The translations under genes and the position numbers were made by a program. This document shows positions 46,583 to 54,753 of a stretch of 64,000 nt of DNA, in pieces. The notes under the pieces are model-generated. The model was not told the origin of the DNA and ran no database searches. It saw nothing but the letters and a program-made list of their open reading frames with translations. This stretch comes from Spirochaetia bacterium (GTDB lineage: Bacteria; Spirochaetota; Spirochaetia; UBA9216), in contig OY776510.1 of the NCBI GenBank assembly GCA_963675665.1, positions 2,752,001-2,816,000 on the forward strand, given 5' to 3'. Every line of letters starts with the position of its first letter. Positions within the stretch are counted from its first letter, which is position 1.

Positions 46583-47719
46583 ATGAACGGTCTATTTTTC
46601 GAGAATAAGATTCCGAATTCGGATTTAACTGCAAGGAAAACGGCAAGAAGCCGTGACCTTCGCTCTTCATACTTTCGGGACACCACCGCAATCATTCACA
46701 GTTATCCTTTCAGGAGGCTGAAGCACAAAACGCAGGTTTTCTTCTCTCCTCATAATGATCATATCTGTACCCGTATTGAGCATGTGATGCATGTAGCTTC
46801 TATTGCCGCGACTATCTGCAGGGCGCTTGATCTGGATGCAGACCTTGCCTGGGCAATAGGGCTTGGACATGATCTGGGACATACGCCCTTCGGTCATGTC
46901 GGCGAAACAATCTTGTCTTCAATGATGAAAGAGCAGGGCGGGTTCAAGCATGAGATATATTCCCTCAGGGTTGTGGATTACCTGGCAAATTACGGCAAGG
47001 GTCTTAATCTGACCTATGCTGTGCGTGACGGCATTCTCAATCACTGCGGTGAGAAATTCGAGCAGTCTATTGTTCCCGACCCGGAATTGAAGAACCTGTC
47101 CGGGATAACCACAAGAGAATATTATCCGGCAACATGGGAAGGCGTTGTAGTACGTGTTTCCGACAAGATTGCCTATATGGGACGCGATCTTGAAGATGCG
47201 CTTCAGCTAAAAATTATCAGCCGTGACGAACTGCCAGAAAATATTATCAGGGTATTGGGCAGCAGTAACAGTGAAATTATAAATACAATGGTGAACGACC
47301 TTATAACGACATCACTTGAAACAGGACGTATAGGATTCTCCGATGATGTTTTCAGCATGATGATAGCCCTTAAGGACTTTAACTACAGCAGAATATACAA
47401 GAACCCTATGCTTTCGTCATACCATCGCTATTTTGAAAGGGTGCTGACAACACTCTATAATTATCTTGATGATCTTTTCAGGACCGGCGGAGATGATGTC
47501 TCCGTTTACATGTCTGAAAATAATTTTCTTGCCGCCAGGTTTTGTGATTATTACCAGAAGATGAAACATTTCTACAATGAAGTTGACGGCGGTTATGATA
47601 TGATGATTTATGATTATATTGCCGGTATGACCGACAAGTATGCACTCAGCTGTGTAAACGAGGTAATGATTCCCAGAAAATTTGAATATCAGTTTAACGA
47701 GATTTTTCTTGATAATTGA
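46583..47719 (+). CDS. Deoxyguanosinetriphosphate triphosphohydrolase-like HD protein
   Basis: FRRLKHKTQVF, TRIEH, GHDLGHTPFGH, DYIAGMTD. Confidence 0.9.
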   Translation: MNGLFFENKIPNSDLTARKTARSRDLRSSYFRDTTAIIHSYPFRRLKHKTQVFFSPHNDHICTRIEHVMHVASIAATICRALDLDADLAWAIGLGHDLGHTPFGHVGETILSSMMKEQGGFKHEIYSLRVVDYLANYGKGLNLTYAVRDGILNHCGEKFEQSIVPDPELKNLSGITTREYYPATWEGVVVRVSDKIAYMGRDLEDALQLKIISRDELPENIIRVLGSSNSEIINTMVNDLITTSLETGRIGFSDDVFSMMIALKDFNYSRIYKNPMLSSYHRYFERVLTTLYNYLDDLFRTGGDDVSVYMSENNFLAARFCDYYQKMKHFYNEVDGGYDMMIYDYIAGMTDKYALSCVNEVMIPRKFEYQFNEIFLDN

Positions 47720-47746: not shown

Positions 47747-48448
47747 CTAATTATTATACCTGAGTTCGCAGGAGATTCCCTGTTTCTCAAACAGGTCTTT
47801 CATCTCTTCAAGAAGAGCAGGCGGCGGCGCGGGAAGCTCTGAAAAAGCGGGATCATAGGTGATTCCGGGTCTGAAGCCCTGCAGAACGAATTTTTTCTCT
47901 CCTTCGATCATGCCGATTATTTCTTTTATCACATCAATATCCACAAATCCCGGAACTACGGTTGTTCTAAAGTGATGCGGAATTCCCGACTCCTTGATAA
48001 TACGTATCGATTCGGTAATTCTTCCGCCTATCTCTGAATTATCCCCTGTAAATCCCAGCCTGGAGTATTTATTAAGTGAAGTCTTTATATCCATTGCAAT
48101 ATAGTCTGCTTTCATTGTCCGCAGTTTTTCAGGCAGCGCGCCGTTTGTATCGAGCTTTACGGCCAGGCCCAGGCTGTGTATATCATGTATTCTGTCCGGC
48201 AGATCATCATGAAGAAGCGGTTCGCCCCCTGTGATGCATACCCCGCCGAGAAGGTGCGCCCGTTTCTGAAGGTAGTCCGTAATCCCGGTCCAGGTAAAAA
48301 GATCCGGAACTTTGGAATTTTCGATAAATTCGGGGTTGTGGCAGTACGGGCAGCGCATATTGCATCCCCGGGTGAAGATTGTTGAAGCAACCTTCCCGGG
48401 GAAATCAATCAGGGTAGTTTTATTCAGTCCGTAAAGCTTTTCAGCCAT
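47747..48448 (-). CDS. nrdG: Anaerobic ribonucleotide reductase activating enzyme (radical SAM)
   Basis: IDFPG, GCNMRCPYCHN, TGGEP, KLDTNG. In the nrd operon. Confidence 0.93.
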   Translation of the reverse strand: MAEKLYGLNKTTLIDFPGKVASTIFTRGCNMRCPYCHNPEFIENSKVPDLFTWTGITDYLQKRAHLLGGVCITGGEPLLHDDLPDRIHDIHSLGLAVKLDTNGALPEKLRTMKADYIAMDIKTSLNKYSRLGFTGDNSEIGGRITESIRIIKESGIPHHFRTTVVPGFVDIDVIKEIIGMIEGEKKFVLQGFRPGITYDPAFSELPAPPPALLEEMKDLFEKQGISCELRYNN

Positions 48449-48454
48449 TGGAAA

Positions 48455-48985
48455 TTAAACCGGAACTTTGGAAAAAAGCGCATCAAGCGCATCGATGTTT
48501 GTTGCCCTGTACATCTCACGGCCTTCGTTGTCAAGAAAGATGACGGTGGGAGAAACAAAAATCTGATATGAAGCTGCAAGCGCAAAGCCTTCCTTTTTAT
48601 CGACATTTACAGCTTCACCGTTTAGATGCGAGTTATCAAGCCAGTTTCTTACCGGAGGACAATTAGGGCATGTTGTCCGGTAAAAATAAATATATTCGGC
48701 CGGGTCGCTTGTGCTGTCCGAAAGGATGGCCCGTTTGGGTTCAGGGGTATCGTTAAAGGTTGCAGTACTTACCGCAGATTCTGCAACCTCTCTGAGCGAA
48801 ACTTTACCGGGCTGGGTGAACAGCTTTCTTTTATTGTACTCGTCTCTCTTGCCCTTGTTCCAGTTTTTTACCGCACGGTAATAACCTACTATTCTTGTGT
48901 AAACTTCGGTTTCAGTTCCCTTTACCGATGTCATTCGTTCCCTGAGCTCTTTGATTTCGTTATCGATTGTTTCAACAGTTCTCAT
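48455..48985 (-). CDS. Stand-alone NrdD glycyl-radical segment fused to a glutaredoxin/thioredoxin-like domain
   Basis: TEVYTRIVGYYRAVKNWNKGKRDEYNKRK is the NrdD C-terminal glycyl loop. C-terminal half has CPNC and SPTVIF (cis-Pro). Own GGGAG RBS and TAATG coupling. Confidence 0.88.
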   Translation of the reverse strand: MRTVETIDNEIKELRERMTSVKGTETEVYTRIVGYYRAVKNWNKGKRDEYNKRKLFTQPGKVSLREVAESAVSTATFNDTPEPKRAILSDSTSDPAEYIYFYRTTCPNCPPVRNWLDNSHLNGEAVNVDKKEGFALAASYQIFVSPTVIFLDNEGREMYRATNIDALDALFSKVPV

Positions 48986-51090
48986 TAATTTTCTCCCAGT
49001 TTAATTTTTTCTTTTTCCAGTTTTTCTATTTGAGCTGCAATAGCAGCCTTTTCTTCATCGGCGCATTTTGGGCAGTTGAAATGTTCGCCGTTCAGATAGC
49101 CATGTTTCGGACAGACTGAAAAGGTCGGCGATATTGTAAAAAACGGCAAATGATAGTTCGATGCAATGGTTTTTACAAGGTTCATGCAGGATTCCCAGTC
49201 TTCTACAGCTTCGCCGAGGAAGCCGTGGAACATTGTTCCGCCGGTATACTTCACCTGCAGTTCGTCCTGCAGATCCAGGGCCTCAAAGATATCGGCCGTA
49301 AAATCAACAGGCAGCTGCGACGAGTTGGTATAAAACGGCGCGTCTGTGCCTGAAGTAATTATGTCGGGGTATTTGTCCCTGTCGTGTTTGGCCAGCCGGT
49401 AACTGGTGCTCTCTGCCGGAGATGCTTCAAGGTTGTAAAGATCTCCTGTTTTTTCCTGGTAATCAGCAAGGCGGTTCCTCATGAAATCCAGAACCTCAAG
49501 TGCAAAATCCCTTCCTTCGTCGGCGACAATGTCCTTGCCGAGGAAATTAAGAAGCGCTTCATTCATGCCGCAAATGCCGATTGTCGAAAAGTGATTATTC
49601 AGGTGGGAAAGATATCGTTTTGTATACGGAAACAGCCCTGCTTCCATCAGCCTGTTGATAACCTTGCGTTTGATCTGCAGCGATTCGGCGGCAAGGTCCA
49701 TCAGGTTGGCAAGCCTGCTGTAAAAATCCTGTTTCGAATTGGCAAGATAGCCTATTTTGGGCAGATTAAGCGTGACTACACCTATTGAACCGGTAAATTC
49801 ATCTGAACCGAACAGACCTCCGCCCCGTTTGCGAAGTTCCCGCTTGTCAAGCTGAAGTCTGCAGCACATTGAGCGCACGTCGTTCGGATCAAGATCGGAA
49901 TTAATGAAGTTCTGGAAATTCGGAGTGCCGTATTTTGCGGTCATTTCAAAAAGCAGTTTGGAATTCTGGGTAGTCCAGTTGAAATCGCGCGTGAGGTTGT
50001 AGGTAGGGATAGGGTACTGAAATCCACGGCCGTTTGCATCACCGGTGAGCATGAGTTCAATAAATGCCTTGTTTATGATGTCCATCTCTTCCTGGCAGTC
50101 GCCGTAAGTGAAATCAAGTTCTTTTCCGCCGACTATAGCTTTTTTATCCTCAAGATCATGCGGGACCGTCCAGTCGAGAGTAATATTGGTGAAAGGAGCC
50201 TGGCTTCCCCACCTTGATGGTGTGTTAACGCCGAATATAAAACTTTGCAGCCCCTGTTTGACTTCCTTGAAGGAAAGCTGATCGGATTTTACAAAGGGTG
50301 CAAGGTATGTGTCGAAGCTCGACAGCGCCTGAGCGCCCGCCCATTCATTCTGCATTATGCCCAGAAAATTAACGATCTGCTGAATGAGGGTGGACAGATG
50401 GGCCGCAGGAAGCGAAGTGATTTTATCGGGCACGCCCCCCAGGCCTTCCTGGATAAGCTGCCTGAGCGACCAGCCTGCGCAATAGCCTGAAAACATGGAC
50501 AGGTCGTGAATATGGAAATCTGCATTCCTGTGTGCTTCGGATATTGCTTCGGAATAGATGTTCTTTAGCCAGTAGTTTGCCGTTATTGTCCCCGAGTTAT
50601 GAAGAATCAAGCCTCCCAGAGAGAAGTTGACGTTTGCATTCTCATTTACGCGCCAGTCGGACTGCTGAAGATAGCCGTCCATTGTTCCGTTAATATCAAG
50701 CATGAGTTTTTTCGTGTCACGCATTACCTCATGCCGGGCGCGGTAAATGATATATGCCTTGGCAATCTCAACTTCGCCTGATTCTATAAGTATCGATTCG
50801 ACAATATCCTGAATCTCTTCGATAGCGGGGGCCGAATTAGGGTGTCTCCCGCTCATGAATTCCGTCAGTGCGGTCTCTACCTTGACTGTTAAAGCCTCTA
50901 CAAGATCAAGATCTTCACTGTTTCTTGCTGCATGAATAGCCCGACCGATAGCGCTTGCAATTTTCCATCGATCGTATTTTTCAGTAGAACCGTCACGCTT
51001 AATTATCTGTCGTACGACGGATCTTTCAGCGGGCTTGTGTTCGACTCCCAGAAACTCTTTCCAGTCGTTGTCAGTCTGCCTGAAATCCAC
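48985..51090 (-). CDS. nrdD: Class III ribonucleoside-triphosphate reductase catalytic subunit lacking the glycyl-radical loop
   Basis: N-terminal ATP cone, HIHDL, GYC, QYPIPT, SMCCRL finger loop, YNLEASPAES, YTGGT, CPKHGY...CPKC zinc site, then stop. Confidence 0.95.
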   Translation of the reverse strand: MDFRQTDNDWKEFLGVEHKPAERSVVRQIIKRDGSTEKYDRWKIASAIGRAIHAARNSEDLDLVEALTVKVETALTEFMSGRHPNSAPAIEEIQDIVESILIESGEVEIAKAYIIYRARHEVMRDTKKLMLDINGTMDGYLQQSDWRVNENANVNFSLGGLILHNSGTITANYWLKNIYSEAISEAHRNADFHIHDLSMFSGYCAGWSLRQLIQEGLGGVPDKITSLPAAHLSTLIQQIVNFLGIMQNEWAGAQALSSFDTYLAPFVKSDQLSFKEVKQGLQSFIFGVNTPSRWGSQAPFTNITLDWTVPHDLEDKKAIVGGKELDFTYGDCQEEMDIINKAFIELMLTGDANGRGFQYPIPTYNLTRDFNWTTQNSKLLFEMTAKYGTPNFQNFINSDLDPNDVRSMCCRLQLDKRELRKRGGGLFGSDEFTGSIGVVTLNLPKIGYLANSKQDFYSRLANLMDLAAESLQIKRKVINRLMEAGLFPYTKRYLSHLNNHFSTIGICGMNEALLNFLGKDIVADEGRDFALEVLDFMRNRLADYQEKTGDLYNLEASPAESTSYRLAKHDRDKYPDIITSGTDAPFYTNSSQLPVDFTADIFEALDLQDELQVKYTGGTMFHGFLGEAVEDWESCMNLVKTIASNYHLPFFTISPTFSVCPKHGYLNGEHFNCPKCADEEKAAIAAQIEKLEKEKIKLGEN

Positions 51091-51113: not shown

Positions 51114-51566
51114 TTATTTAAGCTTTTTAATCTCATCAATGAATTCCTGTACATCGCCGTAAGAACGATAGACTGATGCAAAACGAATATACGCCACACT
51201 GTCTATCCTGTAAAGTTTTTCAAGTACAATCTCACCGAGCTCTGCAGCCAAGATTTCATGTGTACTCTTTCCAATCATATAAGCCTGATCCTCGATATCT
51301 GCAAGAATTTCGCTGACTGTTTCGGCGGAAACAGGTCTTTTTTCAAGCGAACGCTCAAGCCCCCTCGAAATCTTGGTAATATCGAAAACTTCCCTGATGC
51401 CGCTGCGTTTTACAACCATCAGAGGGCGTTCTTCAATCCTCTCATAAGAAGTAAATCTGTATGAGCAGGCGCAGCATTCACGTCTTCTTCTGATTGAGGT
51501 TCCTGACGATGATTGTCTGGATTCTATAACTTTATCGTTATCTTCTCCGCACCGCGGGCATCTCAT
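51114..51566 (-). CDS. nrdR: Transcriptional repressor NrdR
   Basis: MRCPRC, IRRRREC..C..RFTSYE, ATP cone, AYIRFASVY. Confidence 0.97.
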   Translation of the reverse strand: MRCPRCGEDNDKVIESRQSSSGTSIRRRRECCACSYRFTSYERIEERPLMVVKRSGIREVFDITKISRGLERSLEKRPVSAETVSEILADIEDQAYMIGKSTHEILAAELGEIVLEKLYRIDSVAYIRFASVYRSYGDVQEFIDEIKKLK

Positions 51567-53583: not shown

Positions 53584-54753
53584 ATGAGAAAATTTATCGG
53601 GGTTTTGATGATTCTGATACTATGTGTTCCGGTTCTGATTGCTGCAGATGCAGATGTCTCTGCAGATTCGGTGTCGGTGTATTCCGGGGCTTCCGCTGGA
53701 AAAGCCGGCCGGGCGCTTGACCGTCAAAATGTTCTGGAAATCTCACTTGAAGAGTTTCTCGGCAGCAGATCTGTTCGTACGGGTTCAGACGGTATTGCCA
53801 CGGCGATAATCGTTGACGAAAAGGTTAAAAATGCAGTTGAAAAGCTTCTGGATAAAAGTGATTACACGATTATCGAGGGGTCGGTTTTGGCCCGTAATTC
53901 GGATTATGATCGTGTAACATACAGTTTTATCTGGGAACAGTACGGGTTCGAGATTGAATTTGCCTTTGAGAAGGCCGACAAACTCCTGCTGGCCGAAATA
54001 GAAAAGGTATACGGTGATGACGCCTGGCTTTACGGCGAGTTGATGCGCAGTTATGATGACAATTACGTAATAAGGGTTTTTAAAGCGGAAAACCTGATTG
54101 ATCCTGAAGAGGATAAAATAGATTTTATCGAAGCAATGATATCGGCAACAGTAATAGGAAGTACTTTTCAGCCTTTGCTGGGCATTCACGACGGATTGGG
54201 AGTTCTTGATGATCTCGGGCTTGCCGTTGCAAGAAGCGACGTTATCGAGAGTGATGACTATATCGAATATCGCAGGTATGAATCGAACTCTGAAGAGCTG
54301 CAGTCGTTTATGCACACAATTAATGGTATGAGCGGTGATTTTATCGATAATCTTTACTCTTCCGTCGCCAGTATCAGTAAAAAGCATTCGGAGGATAACA
54401 AAATTCTGCTTCCGGAGGATTTTTTCAGTATGCGTGAGGGCGACAACACCGATTTTGCCTTTTTTTATTACGATATACTGAAACGAAACGGTTATCAGGT
54501 GAAATTTGTTGTAATTGATTCAGGCAGCGGAGAACTTTACAGTACGGTTTTTTTCAGAGAAAAGGGTACGGATCTCTGGGGCATAATTGACGGGAACACC
54601 CTGGAACGTGAAACGGCTGAAAACTGGCGCAGGCTTCCCGCACTTGTTTTTACTGCATCGGTTCAGTATTTTGAACCGGATTTGGAAGATATAATCGCGA
54701 AAGGAAAGATTGACCTGCCGTTGCCGTCCGCCTGGAATTCTTCGCTGTATTAA
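53584..54753 (+). CDS. Secreted acidic hypothetical protein
   Basis: N-terminal signal peptide, 389 aa. C-terminal part loosely resembles a transglutaminase-like fold. Confidence 0.7.
   Translation: MRKFIGVLMILILCVPVLIAADADVSADSVSVYSGASAGKAGRALDRQNVLEISLEEFLGSRSVRTGSDGIATAIIVDEKVKNAVEKLLDKSDYTIIEGSVLARNSDYDRVTYSFIWEQYGFEIEFAFEKADKLLLAEIEKVYGDDAWLYGELMRSYDDNYVIRVFKAENLIDPEEDKIDFIEAMISATVIGSTFQPLLGIHDGLGVLDDLGLAVARSDVIESDDYIEYRRYESNSEELQSFMHTINGMSGDFIDNLYSSVASISKKHSEDNKILLPEDFFSMREGDNTDFAFFYYDILKRNGYQVKFVVIDSGSGELYSTVFFREKGTDLWGIIDGNTLERETAENWRRLPALVFTASVQYFEPDLEDIIAKGKIDLPLPSAWNSSLY

Follow-up and report, generated by a model that had tools for sequence, protein, structure and literature searches.

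In textbook class III ribonucleotide reductases (RNRs), the glycyl radical sits on the catalytic chain itself. The locus analysed here, part of a 64,000-nucleotide (nt) stretch from a Spirochaetia bacterium (contig OY776510.1, positions 2,752,001 to 2,816,000; hereafter the window), raises the question of how such an enzyme is built when its catalytic protein, NrdD, stops short of the radical site. The minus strand of the window carries a row of four genes, namely nrdR, an NrdD core, an open reading frame (ORF) of 176 amino acids (aa) and nrdG; the glycyl radical loop, RxxGY...WNxGK, is on the ORF next to the core and not on the NrdD chain, and is present only in trans. A split class III enzyme that is real and conserved is supported by the observations below, and the two-piece form with docking helices and a redoxin domain is a real, conserved variant of the known class III reductase.

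The two genes and their junction

The NrdD core (48985..51090, minus strand; 701 aa) comprises an ATP-cone, the catalytic barrel and a Zn ribbon, without a glycyl loop. It matches positions 1-532 of the 562 positions of the Pfam family NRDD (PF13597; E 1.3e-172), and residues 25-56 of the small radical subunit encoded next to it (48455..48985, minus strand; 176 aa, about 20 kDa) match positions 532-562 (E 6e-8). As the family is split exactly at position 532, we count this in favour of two genes rather than an error. The same cut is seen in the NCBIfam model NF006126 (684 positions), where the core covers positions 2-652, scoring 1079 bits against a cut-off of 548, and the small ORF covers positions 648-682. 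The core also matches the NrdD of Thermotoga maritima (4COI) at E 4.5e-37. No NCBIfam model reaches its cut-off with the 176-aa protein, and the names that members of its family carry in the source databases vary from anaerobic ribonucleoside-triphosphate reductase to glutaredoxin and hypothetical protein. In the rest of the source genome NRDD matches no ORF beyond these two, so this is the only class III enzyme here, and it comes in two pieces. The same genome has ten genes for glycyl radical enzymes resembling pyruvate formate-lyase (PFL), each in one piece with frames of 759-852 aa, leaving NrdD alone split; a further RNR barrel gene, unaccompanied by any NrdB, is probably of class II.

At the junction, the TAA of the core and the ATG of the small ORF overlap at 48985, the last A of the stop being the A of the start, and the two frames differ by one position. 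A GGGAG ribosome-binding site, read from the sequence, lies 7 nt ahead of the ATG (48993..48997, minus strand). Immediately downstream of the small ORF lies nrdG (47747..48448, minus strand), encoding a radical S-adenosylmethionine activase of 233 aa (TIGR02495 NrdG2, 186 bits against a cut-off of 131). Upstream of the core, nrdR (51114..51566, minus strand) encodes the 150-aa transcriptional repressor of RNR genes, with Pfam matches to Zn_ribbon_NrdR (E 2.3e-17) and ATP-cone (E 1.2e-16).

Relatives of the small ORF with lengths of 96-308 aa at E <= 0.001 made up 1540 of the 1591 candidates scored, and the 120 listed are 41 to 99% identical to it at about equal length. We compared 80 related loci, which are the best matches to the full small protein in named genomes, and whose uniform two-gene state is therefore not an unbiased frequency; the carriers include Treponema bryantii, T. 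porcinum, T. lecithinolyticum, and metagenome-assembled genomes (MAGs) of Marispirochaeta and Oceanispirochaeta. The end of a core gene lies upstream of the small ORF in 78 of the 80 loci, and in none of these 78 do the two share a single frame: offsets of 0, 1 and 2 occur 22, 27 and 29 times, with gaps from -26 to +346 nt. The gene nrdG directly follows the small ORF in 79 of the 80. Records labelled Collinsella sp. (L055) and Bacteroidaceae bacterium (L109) have a locus of the Treponema type and are probably mis-binned contigs; L055 groups with a Treponema MAG in the core tree described below.

The pieces can also be far apart. In genome G015, from a genus that lacks the redoxin domain, the pair nrdR-core and the pair small ORF-nrdG are 600 kb apart on one chromosome (halves at C1:712268-713863 and C1:1315639-1315731; loci L124 and L015), and the small protein keeps the helix and the loop, with the redoxin domain absent. 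Of two public contigs that cover the locus, one of 18,251 nt is identical across it and may come from the source sample, while the other, of 3,326 nt and from another sample and study, shows 10 substitutions over 48341-49400, all of them without an indel. An artefact, be it a sequencing frameshift or a pseudogene, or a single chain made by programmed recoding, for which the one-base overlap and the one-position difference between the frames could be taken, has virtually no probability left: it is ruled out by the 78 of 78 two-gene loci with every frame offset and gaps up to 346 nt, by the unlinked halves, by the absence of indels in contigs of other runs, and by the separate start of each ORF. 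The small ORF also has its own GGGAG site, which the first-pass annotation had cited, with the TAATG coupling, against a frameshift.

There is likewise no sign of an intein or intron at the cut, given the range of gaps and a core tail that is a helix of 23-38 residues. Two contig-joining rows, with skips of 391 and 206 nt, were read as fragments of other organisms; they consist of one contig each, with 23-30 letters on the short side and a likeness threshold below 95. On the sequences, the two proteins are almost certainly obligate subunits of each other's enzyme.

The small subunit and its docking to the core

The core ends in its zinc site, CPKHGY...CPKC, followed by a charged tail of 25 residues, ADEEKAAIAAQIEKLEKEKIKLGEN. 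The small ORF begins with MRTVETIDNEIKELRERM, continues into RIVGYY...WNKGKRDEY and has CPNC at residues 106-109. Each sequence statement made in the first pass about this region stands, including the charged helical tail behind the zinc site and the placing of the missing glycyl loop on the next gene. The Zn ribbon residues (C660, H663, C673 and C676; 49063..49113, minus strand) were read from the sequence, with a His at the place of the second Cys of many NrdDs; all 40 cores compared share C660, H663 and C673.

Four parts can be distinguished in the small protein, all on the minus strand. The N-terminal docking helix (residues 3-21; 48923..48979) is delimited by heptads in 78 loci, by a helix at residues 4-19 of the structure model and by the interface of the modelled complex. 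The glycyl radical loop (residues 23-56; 48818..48919), delimited by its match to NRDD positions 532-562, has its radical residue, Gly34, at 48884-48886. The variable linker (residues 58-95; 48701..48814) is poorly conserved, and its predicted local distance difference test score (pLDDT) is below 50 at residues 66-87. The last part is a thioredoxin-fold domain (residues 96-171; 48473..48700) with CPNC at 48659-48670 and a cis-proline, Pro146. Among 26 small proteins at 43-76% identity, loop residues G23, T26, E27, Y29, R31-R37, W42, N43, G45, K46, E49 and R53 are invariant, as are CPNC, the cis-proline (P146-T147) and several other positions, which we count as purifying selection on the radical loop, the CPNC motif and the cis-proline.

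That the small protein combines a radical loop with a thioredoxin-fold domain containing an invariant CPNC and cis-proline is supported by several lines of evidence. Residues 97-171 are modelled as beta-alpha-beta-alpha-beta-beta-alpha with pLDDT 85-91, with CPNC where helix 1 begins and Pro146 ahead of strand 3. Foldseek returned 140 matches at E <= 0.001, with thioredoxins on top (E about 1e-4, probability 1.00); among the matches is 9BXS_E, the thioredoxin chain of a Bacillus subtilis RNR complex. A profile of the family matches small archaeal thioredoxin/glutaredoxin-like (Trx/Grx-like) proteins, 1A8L at 5e-6 and then 1J08, 7C10 and 1FO5. Residues 99-159 match the Pfam families Glutaredoxin (PF00462, 19.1 against 22.9 bits) and Thioredoxin_2 (PF13098, 17.4 against 27) weakly, under their gathering cut-offs, and some homologues carry precomputed matches to PF00462, PF13098, PF00085 or PF13192. 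Among the 80 related loci the redoxin motif is CPNC in 78 and CPSC in two. The thioredoxin/glutaredoxin fold proposed in the first-pass annotation is thus borne out, and the Pro146-Thr147 pattern is one that we take to be thioredoxin-like rather than glutaredoxin-like.

Docking of the two pieces through a pair of helices, also proposed there, is highly probable on the basis of conserved heptads, a modelled interface and a comparison with fused relatives. The docking helix of the core (residues 677-699; 48994..49062, minus strand) is delimited by heptad conservation and by the complex model. Counted from the last Zn-binding Cys, positions +8, +12 and +15 of the core tail are hydrophobic in 78 of 78 loci, +22 in 86% and +23 in 74%, and +19 is Lys or Arg in 96%. 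In the small proteins of the same loci, counted back from Gly23, positions -2, -12 and -16 are always hydrophobic, -5 in 96% and -19 in 95%, with position -9 hydrophobic in 45% and Thr in 50%. The hydrophobic residues are spaced 3-4-3-4 in both helices in all 78 pairs.

Prediction of the complex, which the first-pass annotation had named as a check with NrdG as a third component, here used core residues 125-701 with a 40-row alignment and the small protein with a 26-row alignment. The interface score from aligned errors (ipSAE) is 0.81 (0.82, 0.81 and 0.80 in separate runs), with 0.00 for the best of three controls; in calibration, the mark used is reached by 116 of 157 solved complexes and by 2 of 215 mismatched pairs. 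At least 71% of contacts recur between the runs, and the partner has a pLDDT of at least 68. In the model the two helices lie side by side, with core residues 676-699 contacting partner residues 2-21 at every third to fourth residue; the Zn ribbon (652-674) packs against partner residues 21-37, including Zn-ribbon pairing with residues 24-30, and segments of the barrel pack against partner residues 41-60. The redoxin domain (residues 95-176) is absent from the confident contacts, and the model says nothing either way on redoxin docking.

Two points weigh against taking the modelled assembly at face value. Its barrel interface resembles that of solved one-chain NrdDs (4COI, 8P23, 1H78); this part of the score may have been memorised by the predictor, and it shows likeness rather than binding. 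Additionally, we infer the antiparallel sense of the helix pair from topology and not from coordinates, because both helix ends near the Zn ribbon are those joined to it. We know of no solved counterpart of this helix pair.

The comparison with fused relatives likewise favours docking through the helices. These relatives number 27, made up of 24 aligned one-chain relatives with a redoxin domain and loci L029, L030 and L127. In 26 of the 27, among them 23 of the 24 aligned, the spacing is short and canonical (CPxCG-E-EVYTRIVGYY in the aligned ones) and the docking helices are absent. Only P0122 departs from this: its single chain contains both helices, which the model places at residues 675-694 and 701-716 with a turn of six residues between them and pLDDT 81-95. 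Helices are present in all split members of the redoxin clade that were inspected, including two redoxin-less ones.

The core and its radical/redoxin partner probably form one functional class III RNR from two polypeptides. We propose that the Gly34 loop of the partner would insert into the core barrel like the C-terminal domain of one-chain enzymes, with the first strand of the loop adding onto the Zn ribbon of the core. The cut would be bridged by two amphipathic helices, the last 25 residues of the core and the first 21 of the partner, presumably as an antiparallel coiled coil. NrdG, encoded next door, would install the radical on Gly34, and the flexible linker of ~40 residues would tether the CPNC thioredoxin-fold domain at the exit of the radical loop, where the redoxin may re-reduce the active-site disulfide at each turnover and be recharged by thioredoxin reductase. 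In its barrel, finger-loop Cys, Zn ribbon, RxxGY loop, adjoining NrdG and ATP-cone this enzyme is like the one-chain class III RNRs (T. maritima 4COI/4U3E, Prevotella copri 8P23, phage T4 1H78); it differs from them in the cut between Zn ribbon and radical loop, in the two helices added at the cut and in the thioredoxin-fold domain behind the loop.

Catalytic sites and the reductant

The thioredoxin-dependent class III RNR of Neisseria bacilliformis is reportedly the subject of Wei et al. 2014, and the sites of the core invite comparison with such an enzyme. All of the following are on the minus strand. The ATP-cone occupies core residues 28-121 (50728..51009; PF03477, E 1.1e-20). The beta-A active-site cysteine, Cys204 (50479..50481), aligns with T. 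maritima C125, and the putative active-site proton source, Glu555 (49426..49428), aligns with E495 of the same protein. The finger loop, M408-C409-C410-R411-L412 (49855..49869), is of the MCCR type and aligns with T. maritima SCCRL; the vicinal Cys-Cys sequence SMCCRL that had been noted in the first pass is present at residues 407-412. C204, the MCCR motif and E555 are each invariant in 40 of 40 cores, which we count as purifying selection.

Motif classes of the class III finger loop are described in the relevant part of PMC9669993, according to which a Cys-Cys finger loop together with a Glu goes with the use of thioredoxin, while MCCR enzymes, which retain the Met, have parts for either formate or thioredoxin. 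Compared with the N. bacilliformis enzyme as presented there, ours shares the Cys-Cys finger loop, the beta-A Cys and the active-site Glu, but N. bacilliformis has SCCR without Met and a free thioredoxin, whereas here the loop is MCCR and the redoxin domain is tethered. The core thus contains C409/C410, C204 and E555 as in the thiol-only class III subtype of N. bacilliformis and T. maritima, and its sequence allows the thiol route without proving it. A thioredoxin reductase is encoded elsewhere in the genome, unlinked to the locus (388 bits against a curated cut-off of 343). We lean slightly towards the redoxin domain being the turnover reductant.

Three observations weigh against this assignment. 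Met408 is kept, being invariant in 40 of 40 cores, unlike in the thiol-only subtype, and formate-dependent reduction remains possible, in keeping with what the same part of PMC9669993 allows for an MCCR loop with Glu. The ten PFL-like enzymes of the genome may supply formate. Finally, the redoxin-less genus (type B, nine genomes) has the helices and the radical loop without the redoxin domain, so the redoxin is dispensable for a two-piece design. Formate could therefore be the reductant, with the tethered redoxin having another task; it could, for instance, keep active-site or Zn-site cysteines reduced after oxidative stress, or serve in regulation. We consider this alternative on the unlikely side: CPNC and the cis-proline do not vary within the family, the thiol route accords with Glu555 and the Cys-Cys loop, and in several other lineages one-chain NrdDs carry the same redoxin domain as a fusion, for which a direct catalytic tie is the simplest explanation.

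Redoxins built into RNR subunits have precedents. A database survey reports fusions to Grx for every RNR component, among them one grx::nrdD, of Lachnospiraceae bacterium TWA4, which in the relevant part of that report (PMC6187632) is listed and not studied. In Facklamia ignava, the redoxin of a Grx::NrdB fusion was shown to act as reductant (PMC6187632). There, as here, the redoxin is built into an RNR subunit; as far as that part of the report goes, the F. ignava redoxin is N-terminal on a class I NrdB, whereas ours is C-terminal, small and Trx/Grx-like, and sits on a detached radical subunit. The tethered redoxin domain bears on how MCCR-type enzymes, which have both formate and thiol parts, are actually reduced.

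Distribution, history and purpose of the split

Surveying the architecture in relatives, another check suggested at the outset, found the split conserved, both in the 80 loci above and among 301 sampled genomes of the same phylum, Spirochaetota. Of these, 144 match the small protein at E <= 1e-5, and the rows available for 131 of them were sorted by eye. The full design of radical loop and redoxin (frames of 162-235 aa) is found in 40 of the 131 listed genomes, helix and loop without redoxin (type B, frames of 105-148 aa) in nine, all of one genus, and a tiny loop-only ORF (frames <= 112 aa) in about 65. In four the ORF is fragmentary or of uncertain size, and in 13 the loop lies inside a frame of >= 700 aa, three of these also having the redoxin. 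For 118 of the 131, this puts the radical loop in a frame of <= 238 aa. The gene order core, small gene, nrdG holds in 11 of 11 full-design loci checked (L004-L014), and the order core, tiny ORF, nrdG in 12 of 12 tiny-ORF loci, one of them with two tandem tiny ORFs; three further tiny radical-loop ORFs (L025-L027) are orphans, away from core and nrdG.

The tiny ORFs include a second split lineage of spirochaetes (L017-L024, L028, L032-L034), without docking helices and without redoxin. Its cores are about 690-710 aa long and end in CPVHGY...CPYEH, a Cys/His Zn site, followed by a loop ORF of 50-60 aa and nrdG. In one of these loci about 1.1 kb separates the core stop from the tiny radical-loop ORF (L033:5442-6584), as against 40-350 nt elsewhere.

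A tree of 69 cores (547 columns, LG+G4, quick search, midpoint root, with support only from the Shimodaira-Hasegawa-like approximate likelihood ratio test, SH-aLRT) bears on how this pattern arose, although thinning removed 48 of 72 type A cores from it and it does not fix the order in which splits and fusions occurred. The tiny-ORF and redoxin lineages form separate groups (support 100 and 93), and within the second the one-chain redoxin forms are the first to branch. Split and one-chain forms are intermingled in a clade of 45 rows (support 100); no fewer than three changes between the split and the fused state are required by branches with good support, and the best tree has seven. The redoxin-less genus falls within the full-design sequences (support 98), and P0134, the P0124 group and the P0147 group are one-chain NrdD-redoxin proteins without helices that lie among split sequences, as if re-fused. 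On this topology fusion of the redoxin would have come first, followed by insertion of a helical hairpin that was then cut; some lines would have re-fused, losing the helices, and one genus would have lost the redoxin. Two one-chain NrdDs nested inside the tiny-ORF lineage, L031 and L128 (829 and 813 aa from hit to stop), carry some 100 residues of low-complexity sequence inserted after the Zn site and ahead of the radical loop.

Why the enzyme is split is less clear than that it is. One explanation is a spare-part design, in which oxygen cuts the chain at the radical glycine and the cost is one exchangeable 20-kDa protein. The first-pass annotation had drawn a likeness to GrcA (YfiD), and this stands insofar as both are small, separate proteins whose glycyl radical loop is a homologue of their enzyme's C-terminal domain; it fails in that PFL keeps its own loop, which GrcA replaces after damage, whereas our core ends at NRDD position 532 of 562 without a loop of its own, making the small protein an obligate subunit and not a spare in the GrcA sense. 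GrcA also is not known to have a coiled-coil helix or a redoxin domain. Such a design would find favour in the other spirochaete lineage, where one core occurs with several tiny radical-loop genes (four in G203, three each in G160 and G253), some in tandem and some far from any nrdD or nrdG, and which possibly encode spare radical subunits. It would also be in keeping with the rescue of oxygen-damaged PFL by GrcA (in the relevant part of PMC8683613) and with the radical domain of a one-chain NrdD being a mobile body (in that of PMC11226230). However, the source genome pairs its core with a single small gene, translationally coupled to it by the overlap at the stop codon, which suggests 1:1 synthesis and not surplus spares; extra copies of a small radical protein are confined to the other lineage. 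A coiled coil with strand pairing would also slow exchange of the small protein. We therefore regard the spare-part explanation as doubtful for this enzyme.

Doubtful to the same degree is neutral gene fission, in which the radical module was already autonomous, insertion of the helical hairpin held the pieces together and the cut was fixed without benefit. The interleaving of split and fused forms in the core tree, where the state flips easily, is consistent with it, as is the position of P0134, fused and helix-free, next to a split Treponema sequence. Neutral change does not readily account for the dominance of the split state in the phylum, with 118 listed genomes against 13 with frames of >= 700 aa, nor for the splitting of two separate lineages, and the tree to which it appeals comes from a quick search, has no support values beyond SH-aLRT and leaves many forks open.

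A stronger version of the exchange idea, which we think quite unlikely, is that the small protein is a diffusible radical cartridge, activated by NrdG away from the core, docking through the coiled coil, carrying both radical and reductant, and swappable after oxygen damage. If so, class III RNR would come to resemble class I in keeping the radical on a subunit apart from the catalytic one, and the tiny radical genes that other spirochaetes have in several copies would encode spare cartridges.

Full-text literature searches found no published description of a split class III RNR, and none appears in the available parts of PMC9669993, PMC9531940, PMC11528403, PMC11226230 or a 2026 review of glycyl radical enzymes (PMC13450708). 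A related arrangement is the split class II RNR NrdJa/NrdJb of Pseudomonas aeruginosa (the subject of PMC4520616), where, as here, a C-terminal functional module is a separate polypeptide and the large piece ends in an additional element proposed to keep the two parts together (PMC9669993). It belongs to another class, and its detached piece holds reducing cysteines and a Zn finger, not a radical.

A natural two-chain version offers a 20-kDa substrate for the activase and a radical domain that can be separately labelled or mutated, and is a direct test of the radical domain leaving and re-entering the barrel. The two-piece design is usual among the sampled spirochaetes, with rumen, gut and oral Treponema among its carriers, and concerns the supply of DNA precursors in a large group of anaerobes.

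Two further genes of the window lie on the plus strand. One, at 53584-54753, encodes a protein of 389 aa whose N-terminus is signal-like and which matches no Pfam family at E <= 0.001. The other, at 46583-47719 and convergent to nrdG, encodes a protein with HD and HD_assoc domains, resembling dGTPase-type dNTP triphosphohydrolases; with nrdG and this gene side by side, genes of dNTP synthesis adjoin a gene of dNTP breakdown.

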